From the NCBI RefSeq assembly GCF_041886205.1, contig NZ_CP169029.1: DNA of 64,000 nt; one strand, given 5' to 3'. Source of the stretch: Escherichia coli. GTDB taxonomy: Bacteria > Pseudomonadota > Gammaproteobacteria > Enterobacterales > Enterobacteriaceae. Positions 7,451 to 42,647 of this stretch are shown in pieces (position 1 is the first letter of the stretch; every line of letters begins with the position of its first letter). A program made the translations under genes and the position numbers. The notes under the pieces were generated by a model, which saw only the letters and a program-made list of their open reading frames with translations, did no database searches and was not told the DNA's origin.

Positions 7451-7486
7451 AATAAAAAAGGCCCCCCGATTTGGGAGGCCTTATTG
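7451..7486 (-). terminator. pheA attenuator terminator hairpin (minus strand)
   Basis: On minus strand ggcctcccaaatcggggggcc followed by ttttttatt, between pheL stop and pheA start. Confidence 0.7.
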
Positions 7487-7528
7487 TTCGTCTTCGCATT
7501 CTGTTTCACACGACGAAACGCCTCCCAT

Positions 7529-7576
7529 TCAGGGGAAGGTAAAAAAGAATGCGAAGAAAAACGGTGTGTGTTTCAT
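7529..7576 (-). CDS. pheL: pheA leader peptide (15 aa, 7 Phe codons), translated here as MKHTPFFFAFFFTFP
   Basis: Manual translation of the minus strand; not in the ORF track because it is below the length cut-off. Confidence 0.85.
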   Translation of the reverse strand: MKHTPFFFAFFFTFP

Positions 7577-7631
7577 GTTTGTTTCCTTAAGTGACTTTAG
7601 TACAGTACCCGTACTGTTTTCACGCTGTCAA

Positions 7632-9163: not shown

Positions 9164-10144
9164 ATGGCACAACGAGTACAGCTCACTGCAACGGTGTCCG
9201 AAAACCAACTCGGTCAACGCTTAGATCAGGCTTTGGCCGAAATGTTCCCGGATTATTCACGTTCGCGGATAAAAGAATGGATCCTCGACCAGCGCGTGCT
9301 GGTTAACGGCAAAGTTTGTGATAAGCCGAAAGAAAAAGTATTGGGTGGCGAGCAGGTTGCCATCAACGCTGAGATTGAAGAAGAAGCGCGTTTTGAACCG
9401 CAGGATATCCCGCTGGATATCGTCTATGAAGATGAAGACATTATTATCATTAATAAACCGCGCGACCTGGTGGTACATCCTGGCGCGGGTAACCCGGATG
9501 GCACGGTACTGAATGCGTTGCTTCATTACTATCCACCCATTGCCGATGTACCGCGTGCGGGCATCGTCCATCGTCTGGATAAAGACACCACTGGCCTGAT
9601 GGTTGTGGCAAAAACCGTTCCGGCTCAGACGCGTTTAGTCGAATCTTTGCAACGGCGTGAAATTACTCGTGAGTATGAAGCGGTGGCGATTGGTCATATG
9701 ACCGCTGGCGGTACAGTAGATGAACCAATCAGCCGCCACCCGACCAAACGTACTCACATGGCGGTGCATCCGATGGGCAAACCAGCGGTGACTCACTATC
9801 GCATCATGGAACACTTCCGTGTGCACACGCGTCTGCGGTTGCGTCTGGAAACTGGACGTACGCACCAGATCCGCGTGCATATGGCCCATATCACTCATCC
9901 GCTGGTGGGCGATCCGGTTTATGGTGGTCGTCCGCGTCCGCCAAAAGGTGCTTCGGAAGCATTTATCTCCACGCTGCGTAAGTTTGACCGCCAGGCGCTT
10001 CATGCAACCATGCTGCGTCTTTATCACCCGATCTCCGGCATCGAAATGGAATGGCATGCGCCTATTCCACAAGATATGGTGGAGCTGATTGAGGTGATGC
10101 GCGCCGATTTCGAAGAGCATAAAGATGAAGTGGACTGGTTATGA
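9164..10144 (+). CDS. rluD: 23S rRNA pseudouridine(1911/1915/1917) synthase RluD
   Basis: 326-aa ORF with S4 domain and RluA-family catalytic motif (HRLDKDTTGL). Confidence 0.93.
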   Translation: MAQRVQLTATVSENQLGQRLDQALAEMFPDYSRSRIKEWILDQRVLVNGKVCDKPKEKVLGGEQVAINAEIEEEARFEPQDIPLDIVYEDEDIIIINKPRDLVVHPGAGNPDGTVLNALLHYYPPIADVPRAGIVHRLDKDTTGLMVVAKTVPAQTRLVESLQRREITREYEAVAIGHMTAGGTVDEPISRHPTKRTHMAVHPMGKPAVTHYRIMEHFRVHTRLRLRLETGRTHQIRVHMAHITHPLVGDPVYGGRPRPPKGASEAFISTLRKFDRQALHATMLRLYHPISGIEMEWHAPIPQDMVELIEVMRADFEEHKDEVDWL

Positions 10145-10872
10145 GTAAGCTGATTGTCCCGCAGTGGCCGCTGCCAAAAGGTGTTGCGGCCTGTAGCTCT
10201 ACTCGTATCGGCGGCGTGAGCTTGCCCCCGTATGACTCGCTCAACCTCGGTGCCCATTGTGGCGATAACCCGGATCACGTTGAGGAGAATCGCAAGCGAC
10301 TTTTTGCTGCGGGCAATTTGCCTTCTAAACCGGTCTGGCTTGAGCAGGTACACGGCAAAGATGTGCTTAAGCTTACTGGCGAACCTTATGCCTCAAAACG
10401 AGCAGATGCCTCTTATAGCAATACGCCTGGCACGGTTTGCGCAGTGATGACTGCCGACTGCCTCCCTGTGCTGTTTTGCAATCGAGCGGGAACGGAAGTC
10501 GCCGCCGCTCATGCTGGCTGGCGTGGACTGTGCGCAGGCGTGCTGGAAGAGACGGTTTCCTGTTTTGCTGATAAACCTGAAAACATTCTCGCCTGGTTAG
10601 GGCCGGCAATTGGTCCACGCGCGTTCGAAGTGGGGGCGGAGGTTCGCGAGGCGTTTATGGCAGTAGACGCTAAAGCAAGTGCAGCTTTCATTCAGCATGG
10701 TGATAAGTATCTGGCGGATATTTATCAGCTTGCCCGGCAGCGTCTGGCGAACGTGGGTGTTGAGCAAATTTTCGGCGGCGACCGTTGTACATATACGGAA
10801 AATGAGACTTTCTTCTCTTATCGTCGCGACAAGACCACCGGTCGTATGGCAAGTTTCATTTGGCTGATATAA
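10141..10872 (+). CDS. yfiH: YfiH/PgeF (DUF152, purine nucleoside phosphorylase / laccase-like family)
   Basis: 243-aa ORF; start overlaps rluD stop (ATGA). Confidence 0.85.
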   Translation: MSKLIVPQWPLPKGVAACSSTRIGGVSLPPYDSLNLGAHCGDNPDHVEENRKRLFAAGNLPSKPVWLEQVHGKDVLKLTGEPYASKRADASYSNTPGTVCAVMTADCLPVLFCNRAGTEVAAAHAGWRGLCAGVLEETVSCFADKPENILAWLGPAIGPRAFEVGAEVREAFMAVDAKASAAFIQHGDKYLADIYQLARQRLANVGVEQIFGGDRCTYTENETFFSYRRDKTTGRMASFIWLI

Positions 10873-10934
10873 CCTAAAGAATCAAGACGATCCGGTACGC
10901 GTGATTTTCTTTTCACATTAATCTGGTCAATAAC

Positions 10935-10964
10935 CTTGAATAATTGAGGGATGACCTCATTTAA
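10935..10964 (+). promoter_or_regulatory. Sigma-32 heat-shock promoter of clpB
   Basis: cttgaa ... cctcatttaa, matching the CTTGAA-N13-15-CCCCATNT class, about 40-65 nt upstream of clpB. Confidence 0.6.
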
Positions 10965-11001
10965 TCTCCAGTAGCAACTTTGATCCGTTATGGGAGGAGT
11001 T

Positions 11002-13575
11002 ATGCGTCTGGATCGTCTTACTAATAAATTCCAGCTTGCTCTTGCCGATGCCCAATCACTTGCACTCGGGCACGACAACCAATTTATCGAACCACTTCAT
11101 TTAATGAGCGCCCTGCTGAATCAGGAAGGGGGTTCGGTTAGTCCTTTATTAACATCCGCTGGCATAAATGCTGGCCAGTTGCGCACAGATATCAATCAGG
11201 CATTAAATCGTTTACCGCAGGTTGAAGGTACTGGTGGTGATGTCCAGCCATCACAGGATCTGGTGCGCGTTCTTAATCTTTGCGACAAGCTGGCGCAAAA
11301 ACGTGGTGATAACTTTATCTCGTCAGAACTGTTCGTTCTGGCGGCACTTGAGTCTCGCGGCACGCTGGCCGACATCCTGAAAGCAGCAGGGGCGACCACC
11401 GCCAACATTACTCAAGCGATTGAACAAATGCGTGGAGGTGAAAGCGTGAACGATCAAGGTGCTGAAGACCAACGTCAGGCTTTGAAAAAATATACCATCG
11501 ACCTTACCGAACGAGCCGAACAGGGCAAACTCGATCCGGTGATTGGTCGTGATGAAGAAATTCGCCGTACCATTCAGGTGCTGCAACGTCGTACTAAAAA
11601 TAACCCGGTACTGATTGGTGAACCCGGCGTCGGTAAAACTGCCATCGTTGAAGGTCTGGCGCAGCGTATTATCAACGGCGAAGTGCCGGAAGGATTGAAA
11701 GGCCGCCGCGTGCTGGCGCTGGATATGGGCGCGCTGGTGGCTGGGGCGAAATATCGCGGTGAGTTTGAAGAACGTTTAAAAGGCGTGCTTAACGATCTTG
11801 CCAAACAGGAAGGCAACGTCATCCTGTTTATCGACGAATTACATACCATGGTCGGCGCGGGTAAAGCTGATGGCGCAATGGACGCCGGAAACATGCTGAA
11901 ACCGGCGCTGGCGCGTGGTGAATTGCACTGCGTAGGTGCCACGACGCTTGACGAATATCGCCAGTACATTGAAAAAGATGCTGCGCTGGAACGTCGTTTC
12001 CAGAAAGTGTTTGTTGCCGAGCCTTCTGTTGAAGATACCATTGCGATTCTGCGTGGCCTGAAAGAACGTTACGAATTGCACCACCATGTGCAAATTACTG
12101 ACCCGGCAATTGTTGCAGCGGCGACGTTGTCTCATCGCTACATTGCTGACCGTCAGCTGCCGGATAAAGCCATCGACCTGATCGATGAAGCAGCATCCAG
12201 CATTCGTATGCAGATTGACTCAAAACCAGAAGAACTCGACCGACTCGATCGTCGTATCATCCAGCTCAAACTGGAACAACAGGCGTTAATGAAAGAGTCT
12301 GATGAAGCCAGTAAAAAACGCCTGGATATGCTCAACGAAGAACTGAGCGACAAAGAACGTCAGTACTCCGAGTTAGAAGAAGAGTGGAAAGCAGAGAAAG
12401 CATCGCTTTCTGGTACGCAGACCATTAAAGCGGAACTGGAACAGGCGAAAATCGCTATTGAACAGGCTCGCCGTGTGGGGGACCTGGCGCGGATGTCTGA
12501 ACTGCAATACGGCAAAATCCCGGAACTGGAAAAGCAACTGGAAGCCGCAACGCAGCTCGAAGGCAAAACTATGCGTCTGTTGCGTAATAAAGTGACCGAT
12601 GCCGAAATTGCTGAAGTGCTGGCGCGTTGGACTGGGATTCCGGTTTCTCGCATGATGGAAAGCGAGCGCGAAAAACTGCTGCGTATGGAGCAAGAACTGC
12701 ACCATCGCGTTATTGGTCAGAACGAAGCGGTTGATGCGGTATCTAACGCTATTCGTCGTAGCCGTGCGGGGCTGGCGGATCCAAATCGCCCGATTGGTTC
12801 ATTCCTGTTCCTCGGCCCAACGGGTGTGGGGAAAACAGAGCTTTGTAAGGCGCTGGCGAACTTTATGTTTGATAGCGACGAGGCGATGGTCCGTATCGAT
12901 ATGTCCGAGTTTATGGAGAAACACTCGGTGTCTCGTTTGGTTGGTGCGCCTCCGGGATATGTCGGTTATGAAGAAGGTGGCTACCTGACCGAAGCGGTGC
13001 GTCGTCGTCCGTATTCCGTCATCCTGCTGGATGAAGTGGAAAAAGCGCATCCGGATGTCTTCAACATTCTGTTGCAGGTACTGGATGATGGGCGTCTGAC
13101 TGACGGGCAGGGGAGAACGGTCGACTTCCGTAATACGGTTGTCATTATGACCTCTAACCTCGGTTCCGATTTGATTCAGGAACGCTTCGGTGAACTGGAT
13201 TATGCGCACATGAAAGAGCTGGTGCTCGGTGTGGTAAGCCATAACTTCCGTCCGGAATTCATTAACCGTATCGATGAAGTGGTGGTTTTCCATCCGCTGG
13301 GTGAACAGCACATTGCGTCGATTGCGCAGATTCAGTTGAAACGTCTGTACAAACGTCTGGAAGAACGTGGTTATGAAATCCACATTTCTGACGAGGCGCT
13401 GAAACTGCTGAGCGAGAACGGTTACGATCCGGTCTATGGTGCACGTCCTCTGAAACGTGCAATTCAGCAGCAGATCGAAAACCCGCTGGCACAGCAAATA
13501 CTGTCTGGTGAATTGGTTCCGGGTAAAGTGATTCGCCTGGAAGTTAATGAAGACCGGATTGTCGCCGTCCAGTAA
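11002..13575 (+). CDS. clpB: Chaperone/disaggregase ClpB (two AAA+ modules)
   Basis: 857-aa product [18 protein letters not shown]...; two Walker A motifs ([16 protein letters not shown]); RBS gggaggag. ORF track starts 12 nt upstream at an in-frame ATG. Confidence 0.95.
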
Positions 13576-14018: not shown

Positions 14019-15560
<1,542 letters not shown>

Positions 15561-15645
15561 CCTTAAAGAAGCGTACTTTGCAGTGCTCACACAGATTGTC
15601 TGATAGAAAGTGAAAAGCAAGGCGTCTTGCGAAGCAGACTGATAC

Positions 15646-15721
15646 GTCCCCTTCGTCTAGAGGCCCAGGACACCGCCCTTTCACGGCGGTAACAGGGGTT
15701 CGAATCCCCTAGGGGACGCCA
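15646..15721 (+). tRNA. gltW: tRNA-Glu (anticodon UUC) in the 16S-23S spacer
   Basis: GTCCCCTTCGTCTAGAGGCCCAGGACACCGCCCTTTCACGGCGG...GGGGACGCCA; anticodon loop CTTTCAC; 76 nt including CCA. Confidence 0.95.
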
Positions 15722-15914
15722 CTTGCTGGTTTGTGAGTGAAAGTCACCTGCCTTAATATCTCAAAACTCATCTTCGGGTGATGTTTGAGATATTTGCTCT
15801 TTAAAAATCTGGATCAAGCTGAAAATTGAAACACTGAACAACGAAAGTTGTTCGTGAGTCTCTCAAATTTTCGCAACACGATGATGAATCGCAAGAAACA
15901 TCTTCGGGTTGTGA

Positions 15915-18818
<2,904 letters not shown>

Positions 18819-18911
18819 ACAACGCCGAAGATGTTTTGGCGGATTGAGAGAAGATTTTCAGCCTGATACAGATTAAATCAGAACGCAGAAGCGGTCTGAT
18901 AAAACAGAATT

Positions 18912-19031
18912 TGCCTGGCGGCCTTAGCGCGGTGGTCCCACCTGACCCCATGCCGAACTCAGAAGTGAAACGCCGTAGCGCCGATGGTAGTGTGGGGTCT
19001 CCCCATGCGAGAGTAGGGAACTGCCAGGCAT
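18912..19031 (+). rRNA. rrfG: 5S ribosomal RNA
   Basis: TGCCTGGCGGCC...GGGAACTGCCAGGCAT, 120 nt. Confidence 0.95.
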
Positions 19032-30746: not shown

Positions 30747-30844
30747 GCCGGATGCGGCGTGAACGCCTTATCCGGCCTACAAGATCGTGCAAATTCAATA
30801 TATTGCATGAGCCACGTAGGCCTGATAAGCGTAGCGCATCAGGC
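30747..30844. repeat. BIME: two inverted REP elements
   Basis: gccggatgcggcgtgaacgccttatccggcctac (30747..30780) and inverted copy gtaggcctgataagcgtagcgcatcaggc (30816..30844). Confidence 0.65.
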
Positions 30845-36373: not shown

Positions 36374-37329
36374 TGAAGCAACTTTGGTTTGCCATGTCAT
36401 TAGTGACAGGTAGCCTGTTATTCTCTGCTAACGCCTCGGCCACTCCCGCGTCCGGGGCGTTATTACAGCAGATGAACCTGGCCAGTCAGTCACTGAATTA
36501 CGAGCTGTCATTCATCAGCATCAATAAACAGGGTGTTGAGTCTCTGCGTTATCGACATGCACGCCTCGATAACCGTCCTCTTGCACAATTGTTGCAAATG
36601 GATGGCCCGCGCCGGGAAGTGGTACAGCGCGGCAATGAAATCAGCTATTTTGAACCGGGACTTGAACCGTTCACGCTTAATGGCGATTACATTGTTGATT
36701 CTCTGCCATCGCTCATCTATACCGATTTCAAACGCCTTTCTCCTTACTACGACTTCATCTCCGTCGGGCGCACGCGTATTGCTGATCGTCTTTGCGAAGT
36801 CATTCGCGTGGTTGCCCGAGATGGTACACGCTACAGCTACATCGTGTGGATGGACACTGAATCGAAATTACCGATGAGGGTTGATCTCCTTGATCGCGAT
36901 GGTGAAACGCTGGAACAATTTCGCGTGATTGCTTTTAACGTCAATCAGGATATCAGCAGCAGTATGCAGACGTTGGCGAAGGCAAATTTGCCGCCGTTGC
37001 TTTCTGTTCCTGTAGGTGAAAAAGCTAAATTCAGCTGGACGCCAACCTGGTTGCCACAGGGTTTTAGCGAAGTTTCCAGTAGTCGACGTCCGCTACCGAC
37101 GATGGACAACATGCCTATCGAATCACGTCTCTATTCCGACGGATTATTCAGCTTCTCGGTAAACGTTAACCGCGCTACGCCATCGAGCACCGATCAGATG
37201 TTGCGCACCGGACGCAGAACCGTCAGTACAAGCGTACGTGATAACGCCGAAATCACCATTGTCGGTGAACTGCCGCCGCAAACGGCGAAACGCATTGCCG
37301 AGAATATTAAGTTCGGGGCAGCGCAATGA
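36373..37329 (+). CDS. rseB: Sigma-E regulatory protein RseB (periplasmic)
   Basis: 318-aa ORF with signal peptide; coupled to rseA (1-nt overlap). Confidence 0.93.
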   Translation: MKQLWFAMSLVTGSLLFSANASATPASGALLQQMNLASQSLNYELSFISINKQGVESLRYRHARLDNRPLAQLLQMDGPRREVVQRGNEISYFEPGLEPFTLNGDYIVDSLPSLIYTDFKRLSPYYDFISVGRTRIADRLCEVIRVVARDGTRYSYIVWMDTESKLPMRVDLLDRDGETLEQFRVIAFNVNQDISSSMQTLAKANLPPLLSVPVGEKAKFSWTPTWLPQGFSEVSSSRRPLPTMDNMPIESRLYSDGLFSFSVNVNRATPSSTDQMLRTGRRTVSTSVRDNAEITIVGELPPQTAKRIAENIKFGAAQ

Positions 37330-37805
37330 TCAAAGAGTGGGCTACCGTCGTCTCCTGGCAAAACGGGCAGGCGCTGGTCAGTTGTGATGTTAAAGCCTCA
37401 TGCAGCAGCTGCGCTTCACGCGCCGGTTGCGGTAGCCGCGTGTTGAATAAACTTGGCCCGCAAACCACGCATACCATTGTCGTACCCTGTGATGAGCCGT
37501 TAGTGCCGGGGCAAAAAGTGGAATTGGGGATCGCCGAAGGCAGCCTGCTTAGCTCCGCATTACTGGTTTATATGTCGCCGCTGGTGGGATTATTCCTCAT
37601 CGCTTCGCTATTTCAGCTACTCTTTGCTTCTGACGTCGCAGCATTATGTGGTGCGGTCCTCGGCGGTATTGGCGGGTTCCTGATTGCGCGTGGCTACTCG
37701 CGTAAGTTTGCTGCCCGGGCAGAATGGCAACCGATCATCTTAAGCGTGGCATTGCCGCCTGGCCTTGTGCGATTTGAAACATCTTCGGAAGACGCGAGCC
37801 AGTGA
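37326..37805 (+). CDS. rseC: Sigma-E regulatory protein RseC (SoxR-reducing system family)
   Basis: 159-aa ORF with Cys-rich N-terminus and two TM segments; 4-nt overlap with rseB. Confidence 0.9.
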   Translation: MIKEWATVVSWQNGQALVSCDVKASCSSCASRAGCGSRVLNKLGPQTTHTIVVPCDEPLVPGQKVELGIAEGSLLSSALLVYMSPLVGLFLIASLFQLLFASDVAALCGAVLGGIGGFLIARGYSRKFAARAEWQPIILSVALPPGLVRFETSSEDASQ

Positions 37806-38002
37806 TTTCACTGGCTTTGTTGCATTTTGCATAACAAATGCGAGGACGTTTCCAGATACCACAATCCATACGGTATGAACATTTCCTCGCCTCAATGTTG
37901 TAGTGTAGAATGCGGCGTTTCTATTAATACAGACGTTAAGCTCAGAACAGCGACTTCTAAAAGCCTGGTTAACCGGGCATTAAGGCACAATAATCATACT
38001 TT

Positions 38003-39802
<1,800 letters not shown>

Positions 39803-40838: not shown

Positions 40839-40937
40839 TTATTTATGAGATAAATCTCCCGTGGCTAACGACATCCCCCGTCGTTGTGTATAGAATATTC
40901 CCCCGAAGTTTAAGGTTGGCACCTCCAGGTTGCCACG

Positions 40938-41031
40938 GCACACGAAACAGCGTTGGTCCCCATATACCGCTAAACTGAAACTGCAGCGAAGCAGTTAGCA
41001 GAGCCATGTATATCAGGTCTGTTTCGTGTGC
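40938..41031 (+). promoter_or_regulatory. rnc leader: 13-bp perfect inverted repeat able to form a long-range stem, consistent with the RNase III autoregulatory cleavage site
   Basis: gcacacgaaacag (40938..40950) and ctgtttcgtgtgc (41019..41031) read directly. Confidence 0.5.
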
Positions 41032-41034
41032 TGA

Positions 41035-42647
<1,613 letters not shown>

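Follow-up and report, generated by a model that had tools for sequence, protein, structure and literature searches.

Nested start, heat-shock promoter and small RNA at the clpB locus of Escherichia coli

The region upstream of clpB in Escherichia coli raises the question of which of two neighbouring in-frame ATG codons begins the protein, from which promoter the gene is transcribed, and what else is encoded in the short stretch between them. The σ32 dependence of clpB is established, and its heat-shock promoter is said to have been mapped in 1991, by Kitagawa and by Squires. The analysis covered a 64-kb stretch of the E. coli chromosome (referred to as the window), which is 100% identical to K-12 over the compared interval 10860–11030; the region was matched in 5425 of 5426 complete E. 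coli genomes. With high confidence, the interval is read as a σ32 (RpoH) heat-shock promoter, followed by a short leader, a Shine–Dalgarno (SD) sequence and the true clpB start at ATG 11002, with a decoy ATG at 10990 and an internal start for ClpB80, everything from promoter to start being nested in ryfD (Table 1). All individual features of the clpB/ryfD locus were already known, and the finding of a first-pass annotation made from the sequence holds nothing new. The locus is that of the K-12 clpB promoter, a member of the RpoH regulon, here in another E. coli strain; CTTGAA, the 14-nt spacer and CCTCATTT are common to both, with no difference.

Table 1. Features at the clpB/ryfD locus, in window coordinates.
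Feature	Position	Strand	Basis or remark
Candidate ryfD promoter, extended −10-like TGaTATAAc	10865–10873	+	inferred; overlaps yfiH stop TAA (10870–10872)
RyfD small RNA (b4609), ~143 nt	10880–11022	+	K-12 RefSeq, Rfam, Term-seq; encloses the whole clpB promoter-to-start stretch
RyfD closing helix, 5′ strand, AAGACGAUCCGG.ACGCGUGAUUU	10884–10907	+	pairs with 10997–11019 in the predicted minimum-energy fold
σ32 −35 element CTTGAA	10935–10940	+	consensus match, conservation
Inverted repeat TGAGG-GATGA-CCTCA across spacer and −10 element	10945–10959	+	short hairpin flagged by terminator scan
σ32 −10 element CCTCATTTAA, core CCTCATTT at 10955–10962	10955–10964	+	consensus match, at least 90% conserved
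UUAAUCUCCAGUAGC, discriminator and predicted σ32 start region; also anti-SD arm of the inner RyfD hairpin and lpp-complementary	10961–10975	+	
In-frame upstream ATG, decoy giving MGGV	10990–10992	+	opens the longest ORF
SD of the true start, GGGAGGAG	10992–10999	+	anti-SD duplex ~−10 kcal/mol
RyfD closing helix, 3′ strand (SD end, AUG, codons 2–6)	10997–11019	+	predicted minimum-energy fold
clpB CDS, full-length ClpB, 857 aa	11002–13575	+	RefSeq, NCBIfam NF008118, PDB chains
Internal SD GGAGG (Gly146–Gly147 codons)	11434–11438	+	anti-SD duplex −10.6 kcal/mol, 7 nt before GTG
ClpB80 CDS, 709 aa, from internal GTG at codon 149 (Val149)	11446–13575	+	K-12 RefSeq

The start of clpB is ATG 11002, not ATG 10990. 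The longest open reading frame (ORF) runs from 10990 to 13575 and encodes 861 aa, the second ATG (11002–11004) lying 12 nt downstream of the first. By calculation of anti-SD complementarity, a single site was obtained (10989–10997, about −10 kcal/mol), which serves ATG 11002, the GGAGG core of the SD ending 4 nt before this AUG, and which contains the upstream ATG; no SD was found upstream of ATG 10990 by the same calculation. In the NCBIfam equivalog for ClpB, profile positions 1–857 aligned to residues 5–861 of the long ORF, leaving MGGV outside the model (NF008118: 1926.7 bits at a cut-off of 1417; TIGR03346: 1470.8 bits at a cut-off of 1232.1), RefSeq annotates ClpB as 857 aa, and ClpB chains in the PDB begin with MRLDRL. 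The first-pass annotation had listed a promoter, an ATG 12 nt upstream, a ribosome binding site (RBS) and a second ATG, each of which was found where it had been placed, and had taken the RBS-supported ATG as the true start, with which RefSeq, the profile, the PDB chains, the single SD and the variable codon at −12 all agree.

The reading frame also contains a second start, and Ribo-RET peaks in E. coli are located at both the annotated and the internal clpB starts. The CDS of ClpB80 in K-12 RefSeq begins at 2733729, corresponding to window position 11446, and databases list the identical 709-aa protein as ClpB80 or ‘Isoform ClpB-3’. Of 120 species, 107 have GTG at codon 149, and in Salmonella the exchange GTG-445 → CTT abolishes the short form of ClpB. 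The internal site, GGAGG at 11434–11438 with GTG 11446, gives the N-domain-less isoform ClpB80. Initiation at the AUG plus an internal GUG codon 149 after GGAGG is the same as in the dual ClpB95/ClpB80 initiation, which citing papers attribute to Park et al. 1993, and no difference was seen. The shorter isoform from an internal start had been anticipated without being located; its start coordinates are now fixed (GTG 11446).

For the promoter, all six bases of CTTGAA agreed with the −35 consensus CTTGAAA, the seventh base being T instead of A, and CCTCATTT, placed after a 14-bp spacer (TAATTGAGGGATGA), matched 7 of 8 positions of the −10 consensus CCCCATNT, for which a distance of 13–15 bp from CTTGAA was considered. 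The pattern CTTGAA-N12-16-CCNCATNT had a single match when both strands of the 64-kb window were scanned (0.06 expected; 5 of 100 shuffles contained any match). TTGAA was invariant in 108 aligned sequences and its leading C was conserved in at least 90% of them, and the motif as a whole hardly varies among about 120 species of Enterobacterales; in Ferrimonas and Pseudidiomarina, σ32-type boxes are likewise found upstream of clpB, with an unrelated remaining spacer. The single match in 64 kb, the conservation throughout the order and the boxes in the latter two genera mark the motif as more than chance, and the σ32-type promoter that had been proposed just upstream of clpB thus holds in sequence, spacing and conservation. 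The +1 position is predicted purely from promoter geometry, at 10968–10971. In the σ32 ChIP-chip data of Cho et al. 2014, region SigH_270 (2731757–2732618) covers the clpB promoter, at a resolution of hundreds of bp, if the coordinates are those of U00096.2; in favour of the corresponding offset (about −1978), a σE peak of the same study then lands on the bamD promoter. A σ32 TSS of clpB had no entry in Kim 2012 or Cho 2014, whose TSS tables and supplements were consulted, and a full-text literature search with the clpB promoter sequence returned only a primer table.

All three claims of the first-pass annotation on this region (promoter, RBS-supported start with the risk of an added MGGV, short isoform) stood, but the description was incomplete, as it overlooked ryfD around the interval. 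The K-12 RefSeq ncRNA ryfD (2734153..2734295) maps to 10880–11022, and Rfam RF02768 matched 10883–11021 with model positions 1–140 of 140 (125.3 bits, gathering score 42). RyfD, of the RyfD/Ysr155 family (RF02768), is credited to Kawano et al. 2005. Term-seq in E. coli (Adams et al. 2021) reported 2734153, which is window position 11022, as a very strong 3′ end, its score being among the highest of the rows listed. In Salmonella, dRNA-seq detected a primary TSS of very high strength (5513 reads), which precedes the clpB ATG by 120 nt and corresponds to position 10882. The abundant RyfD RNA, about 143 nt long, extends from just after the yfiH stop codon to 21 nt into clpB. The motif TGNTATAAY is present at the position of the candidate ryfD promoter in 91 of 121 species; a σ70 scan of 10500–11600 called no promoter, the −10-like TATAAC being missed because its last base is C and the scan requires a final T.

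The Yersinia RNA Ysr155 (138 nt) occupies the same position between yfiH and clpB, and RyfD is constitutive and Hfq-independent in that genus. With RyfD/Ysr155 (RF02768), the RNA described here shares the full-length family match, the yfiH–clpB position, the overlap with the 5′ end of clpB and the ends. It also resembles the leader- or 5′UTR-derived small RNAs of Adams et al. 2021 in being a discrete short RNA whose strong 3′ end falls shortly after the start of the downstream ORF; unlike these, the RyfD leader contains a second promoter of the downstream gene, which belongs to an alternative sigma factor, and it is without a canonical terminator, known ligand or riboswitch. A scan for G+C-rich hairpins with a U-run directly after them gave no intrinsic terminator at the 3′ end (11019–11030), where the helix is followed by ACUAAUAAAUU, and termination of this kind at 11022 is not supported. 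Regarding RNase III processing of the helix, clpB and ryfD are unmentioned in the transcriptome-wide paper examined. In the published view, RyfD is a small RNA of trans or unassigned function; we infer here that it contains the σ32 promoter of clpB and may act in cis by occlusion.

RyfD is predicted to fold with −52 kcal/mol (z = −5.6). In this model a closing helix would join the bases that shortly follow the yfiH stop codon to the clpB SD, AUG and codons 2–6, and in an inner hairpin UCUCC (within 10961–10975) is predicted to pair with GGGAG of the SD. The outer helix was independently recovered by RNAalifold, its outer 12 pairs being maintained to about 95% in 108 sequences, and 90% of alignment cells were paired versus about 40% in slid controls. 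Most changes were one-sided (A-U → G-U), double changes occurring in 6 pairs only; double-sided covariation in the closing helix was sparse, its 3′ strand being coding, and amounted to 2–25 cells per pair from few independent events. Synonymous-codon entropy, determined with a search pattern that admitted every synonymous codon, was 0.07–0.21 bits for codons 2–6 versus about 0.4–2.2 bits from codon 7 on. Among the 10 species with changes in codons 2–6, 4 compensate for them (duplex −26 to −37 kcal/mol) and the other 6 lack the helix (−8 to −17 kcal/mol, control level). The frozen codons 2–6, together with this pattern of either compensation or absence of the helix, lend indirect support to selection on the predicted closing helix. 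The layering is of interest in that the σ32 promoter, the RBS and the first six clpB codons would all be constrained by the fold of the enclosing, abundant RyfD, a constraint which would account for the frozen promoter spacer and synonymous sites across the whole Enterobacterales.

For transcripts of the σ32 type, the predicted probability of the AUG and codons 2–6 being unpaired was about 0.55 at 30–45 °C, versus 0.01–0.02 over the same range in RNAs that start at ryfD or read through from upstream; the SD was mostly paired in both types (predicted, about 0.15 unpaired), the contrast being confined to the AUG and early codons. Following this model, RNAs from the ryfD promoter would fold such that a closing helix of about −30 kcal/mol clamps the end of the clpB SD, the AUG and codons 2–6, with the inner UCUCC arm also pairing with the SD; these RNAs would thus be closed to translation, and most would end at +21. 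The σ32 polymerase would start inside the structure, downstream of its 5′ strand, so that the σ32 mRNA could be translated because the occluding strand is absent. That ryfD-start RNAs are translationally closed and only σ32 transcripts open, ClpB synthesis being set by the choice of promoter, has in our view a probability approaching, if not quite reaching, an even chance. More tentatively, a nested design may be envisaged, possible rather than probable, in which constitutive ryfD RNAs clamp the RBS by a helix of about 23 bp and stop at +21, insulating ClpB, the σ32 mRNA remains open, and the same RNA acts in trans, e.g. on lpp. If true, a promoter-choice switch for translation would be coupled to a dual-function small RNA, and the layering is suggested as a simple means to hold ClpB synthesis strictly σ32-dependent despite strong upstream transcription. 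RNA thermometers (rpoH mRNA, ibpA/ROSE, fourU) likewise hide the initiation region of a heat-shock gene in a structure. A thermometer was rejected here, the AUG in long transcripts being predicted as unpaired with a probability of 0.01–0.02 at each of 30, 37, 42 and 45 °C; unlike in thermometers, the RyfD helix is far too stable, and relief would come from another promoter, not from melting.

Several other readings of the locus were weighed. ATG 10990 opens the longest ORF, 80 of 121 species have an ATG at −12, and ClpB proteins of 861 aa have been deposited (AAG57705.1 and AAN81563.1, for EDL933, CFT073 and others); it is nonetheless extremely improbable that it is the genuine, conserved start and ClpB a protein of 861 aa. 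The codon is replaced in 41 of the 121 species (39 with non-start codons, TTG in 2 more), the substitutes being ATT (as in Serratia and Photorhabdus), ACG, CTT, CTC and others, with an in-frame TAG in 4 of 121; the ATG lies inside the only SD and has no anti-SD complementarity upstream, and MRLDRL is the N-terminus in the curated profile, in RefSeq and in the PDB chains. That the ATG is partly conserved is accounted for by its place within UAUGGGAGG, the hairpin arm that carries the SD. The 861-aa form was found on 89 contigs versus at least 1000 contigs for the 857-aa form, which bears out the warning that automated calls may add MGGV and confirms that longest-ORF gene callers put these spurious residues on ClpB, such database entries persisting. 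Very little probability is likewise given to the σ32-like boxes being incidental and clpB being transcribed from the ryfD start with a 120-nt leader. The late-stationary dRNA-seq of Salmonella labels the −120 site as the ‘primary TSS’ for clpB, with no σ32 start in its list, but it was no heat-shock experiment and its table is without a heat-shock condition. RNA from the ryfD start, moreover, overwhelmingly ends at +21 and has a start codon predicted to be 98% paired, while the consensus match has no second copy in the 64 kb, is kept in distant genera with an otherwise unrelated leader, and is covered by the σ32 ChIP-chip region (if in U00096.2 coordinates). RyfD could finally be a functionless, nuclease-resistant decay remnant of rluD-yfiH-clpB read-through transcripts, since both ends lie 3–4 nt outside the long helix, as exonuclease trimming would give, and there is no canonical terminator. 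This is improbable in view of the 5′ end, which is a TEX-enriched primary TSS in Salmonella, the conservation of the helix with compensated changes, the constrained synonymous sites and the extended −10-like motif in 91 of 121 species.

A different matter is whether the closing helix and the frozen codons serve only the stability of RyfD as a trans-acting small RNA, e.g. on lpp, with no effect in cis, which we consider a real possibility while not a probable one. A TRIC-seq preprint reports a specific contact between RyfD and the lpp 5′UTR, and consistent with it, 10961–10975 can form 15 bp with nt 1–16 of lpp mRNA, a match equalled by none of 2000 shuffles (duplex from a local calculation; the whole-length version gave a meaningless, long-looped structure). 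Over-expression of RyfD alters biofilm formation and swarming, and its constitutive, Hfq-independent presence in Yersinia points in the same direction. On the other hand, when 18278 sliding 28-mers of the window were taken as a sample, 6 bound lpp just as well, and the lpp-complementary segment is predicted to be partly paired within RyfD. An RNA carrying both strands of the helix would, moreover, necessarily have the clpB initiation region paired, so that some consequence in cis is hard to avoid, and roles in cis and in trans are compatible with each other, as in the nested design set out above.

Two minor signals were encountered nearby. At 10785–10830, Rfam gave a weak match to a fragment of a plastid group II intron (20 bits, gathering score 61), which was dismissed as chance. 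The TGAGG/CCTCA hairpin flagged by the terminator scan was considered as a yfiH terminator and rejected, as the RyfD RNA reads through it and no efficient stop can thus be assumed; in this repeat, 6 sequences, the majority from Xenorhabdus, have A-U in place of G-C at one pair, both sides being changed.

The region 10700-11700 was matched in 5425 of 5426 complete E. coli genomes, and 10860-11030 was 100% identical to K-12 MG1655, so that K-12 coordinates could be converted to window positions (w) by K12 = 2734173 + 11002 − w. The genes rluD, yfiH and clpB are followed by the rrnG operon, and bamD lies divergently upstream of them. The K-12 annotation contains the small RNA gene ryfD (b4609; 2734153-2734295) on the clpB strand, and Rfam model RF02768 (Ysr155_RyfD) matched 10883-11021 at 125.3 bits (gathering score 42). 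The clpB promoter, the Shine-Dalgarno (SD) sequence and the clpB start are therefore all located inside a small-RNA gene; the first-pass annotation, whose promoter and start assignments held, had overlooked it.

Both ends of RyfD are experimental. In E. coli Term-seq data (Adams et al. 2021, supplement) the 3′ end at 2734153, window 11022, is classed as primary for ryfD and internal to clpB; its scores of 2.7e7 and 7.5e7 exceed those of adjacent entries by orders of magnitude. In Salmonella, dRNA-seq (Ramachandran et al. 2014, supplement) places a primary transcription start site (TSS) 120 nt before the ATG of clpB, corresponding to window 10882, with 5513 reads against tens for neighbouring promoters. 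An abundant RNA with its own start, ending 21 nt into clpB, encloses both the clpB initiation region and a sigma-32-type promoter. No canonical terminator was found at 11022 by scanning. The same dRNA-seq table assigns to clpB a weak secondary TSS (16-28 reads) at SL1344 2805620, about 518 nt upstream and inside yfiH. In Yersinia, the RyfD counterpart measures 138 nt and is expressed constitutively, independently of temperature and of hfq. An extended −10-like element overlaps the yfiH stop 6-8 nt before the RyfD start; judged by its position and by the presence of TGNTATAAY in 91 of 121 species, it probably serves as the promoter of ryfD from within the 3′ end of yfiH. The closing codons of yfiH together with its stop (CTG ATA TAA CC) show nucleotide-level conservation that extends even to the rare ATA codon.

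Coordinates of features in the window
Feature	Position	Strand	Remark
pheA leader	7452-7577	-	Rfam match above gathering score
rluD	9164-10144	+	
yfiH	10141-10872	+	
extended −10-like TGaTATAAc	10865-10873	+	
ryfD	10880-11022	+	
sigma-32-type −35, CTTGAA	10935-10940	+	followed by 14-nt spacer
sigma-32-type −10, CCTCATTTAA	10955-10964	+	after 14-nt spacer
upstream in-frame ATG	10990	+	opens longest ORF, 861 aa
SD GGGAGGAG	10992-10999	+	
second ATG, clpB start	11002	+	
clpB	11002-13575	+	
internal SD GGAGG	11434-11438	+	7 nt before GTG; anti-SD duplex -10.6 kcal/mol
ClpB80 start GTG (Val149)	11446	+	
rrnG operon (16S, tRNA, 23S, 5S)	14019-19029		Rfam match above gathering score
ES036	30781-30823		Rfam match above gathering score
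AsrC, antisense of rseC	37290-38121	-	Rfam match above gathering score
rncO leader	40905-41119		Rfam match above gathering score
ohsC	44532-44596	-	Rfam match above gathering score
GlmY	53797-53944		Rfam match above gathering score

The promoter and start elements were found exactly where the first-pass annotation had put them, and sequence and spacing of the promoter fit the established sigma-32 consensus. The pattern CTTGAA-N12-16-CCNCATNT occurs once in the 64 kb on both strands (0.06 expected). Conservation was scanned in one genome per species using a degenerate pattern for a 13-residue peptide, with all synonymous codons permitted, which yielded 120 loci, nearly all from Enterobacterales. 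The CTTGAA...TTGAGGGATGACCTCATTTAATCTCCAGTAGCA block was almost invariant among them, and the two non-enterobacterial matches, Ferrimonas and Pseudidiomarina, kept CTTGAAA-N13-14-CCCA(T/C)(C/A)T-type boxes with unrelated spacers; the motif is confirmed as real rather than a chance occurrence. The clpB heat-shock promoter was reportedly mapped in 1991 by Kitagawa et al. and Squires et al. The sigma-32 ChIP-chip region SigH_270 (Cho et al. 2014) includes the site if its coordinates refer to U00096.2, an assumption supported by the fact that the sigma-E peak there then hits the bamD promoter. The TSS tables examined gave no entry for the sigma-32 start of clpB; a +1 at about 10968-10971, 6-8 nt past CCTCATTT, is predicted from the geometry of other sigma-32 promoters.

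An inverted repeat, TGAGG-GATGA-CCTCA (10945-10959), covers the promoter spacer and −10 element, with a G-C to A-U exchange on both sides in Xenorhabdus species (TAAGG...CCTTA), and a possible alternative hairpin (CCTTGA/TTGAGG, including the −35 element) competes with it. In one Xenorhabdus indica assembly, two contigs (L113, L114) share this clpB 5′ region and do not differ in the 75 nt before it, either by duplication or by assembly redundancy. A typical Enterobacteriaceae yfiH-ryfD-clpB junction on CACSKA010000005.1 (L105), labelled Chryseobacterium sp. 18061, probably reflects contamination or wrong labelling of the assembly.

ATG 11002 and not ATG 10990 is the clpB start. RefSeq ClpB has 857 aa in a matching strain and in K-12, profile positions 1-857 of the NCBIfam ClpB equivalog (1926.7 bits) fall on residues 5-861 of the long ORF, and solved-structure chains of E. 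coli ClpB begin MRLDRL, the N-domain crystal construct comprising residues 1-148. Within 10965-11002, complementarity to the 16S rRNA tail is confined to a single site centred on GGGAGG (about -10 kcal/mol); ATG 10990 lies within it and is without complementarity upstream of its own position. Of 121 loci, 80 have ATG as the −12 codon and the others ATT (17), ACG (4), in-frame TAG (4), CTT, CTC or further codons, a tally unbiased by the search pattern, which fixed downstream codons only. E. coli Ribo-RET peaks coincide with the annotated start and the known internal start. As had been anticipated, automated calls do add MGGV: the exact 861-aa protein is deposited (e.g. AAG57705.1, AAN81563.1) and was found on 89 contigs, compared with at least 1000 for the 857-aa form. 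The extended version (10990-13575) persists in public protein databases, among other places in a UniRef entry and in the annotations first deposited for EDL933 and CFT073.

The shorter isoform, mentioned earlier without a position, starts at GTG 11446 (CGT GGA GGT GAA AGC GTG), where K-12 RefSeq has a second CDS, ClpB80 (start 2733729). Databases list the exact 709-aa product as ClpB80 or 'Isoform ClpB-3', 107 of 120 species have GTG at codon 149, and in Salmonella the short form was abolished by changing GTG-445 to CTT. Promoter, true start, the ClpB95/ClpB80 pair and RyfD have all been described and annotated before, and the initial finding is correct and already known; for annotation, the MGGV extension should be left out and the GTG 11446 isoform recorded.

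The 143-nt RyfD is predicted to fold at -52 kcal/mol (shuffles -31; z = -5.6). Its predicted closing helix of ~23 bp pairs 10884-10907, just past the yfiH stop, with 10997-11019, the SD end, AUG and codons 2-6 of clpB, and UCUCC (10966-10969) is predicted to form an inner hairpin with the SD segment GGGAG. When 108 distinct sequences were folded together with RNAalifold, the outer closing helix emerged independently, as did pairing of the anti-SD arm; 90% of cells in that alignment were paired, against about 40% for slid partners. Variation was mostly one-sided (A-U replaced by G-U), with few double changes. Synonymous-codon entropy was 0.07-0.21 bits in codons 2-6 and increased to about 0.4-2.2 bits from codon 7, the first past the helix edge; 113 of 117 species use CTT for Leu6. 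Only ten species change any of codons 2-6: four maintain a strong duplex by compensation (-26 to -37 kcal/mol), two Erwinia species, for instance, balancing GAT to GAC by an A-to-G change in the facing strand, and six lack the upstream strand (-8 to -17 kcal/mol; control level -10), compared with a median of -30 kcal/mol in the 110 unchanged species. The closing helix is therefore under nucleotide-level selection, which accounts for the rigid promoter spacer and first clpB codons. This pattern is stronger, though indirect, support than alignment covariation, and the helix-less lineages serve as natural 'helix-loss' controls. The upstream strand is absent in Klebsiella sp. BIGb0407 (L013), Edwardsiella (L025, L076, L116) and Enterobacillus (L115), whose loci are among the few with synonymous changes in codons 2-6.

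RNAs begun at ryfD would carry both helix strands, most ending at +21, and the predicted unpaired fraction over their AUG and codons 2-6 stays at 1-2% throughout 30-45 °C, on which grounds an RNA thermometer was rejected. RNAs begun at ~10970 would be without the 5′ strand, with about 55% of the same segment predicted unpaired; in either RNA the SD itself is, by prediction, largely base-paired. ClpB translation may thus be set by promoter choice rather than by temperature-driven melting. This model is tentative, rather less likely than not or at best evenly balanced; it is the sole element absent from the literature examined. The helix constraint might instead serve only the stability of RyfD as a trans-acting RNA. 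Over-expression phenotypes have been reported, and a 2025 preprint describes a specific contact between RyfD and the lpp 5′UTR. Positions 10961-10975 (UUAAUCUCCAGUAGC) show complementarity to nucleotides 1-16 of lpp mRNA (GCUACAUGGAGAUUAA; 15 bp, one bulge), a match equalled in 0 of 2000 shuffles but in 6 of 18278 28-mers sampled by sliding along the window; the complementarity is suggestive and consistent with the preprint's pairing, yet not unique. Control of clpB in cis and a trans role of RyfD are mutually compatible.

UUAAUCUCCAGUAGC is also the most conserved run past the sigma-32 −10 element. The remaining Rfam matches of the window are those expected for this region of the E. coli chromosome.
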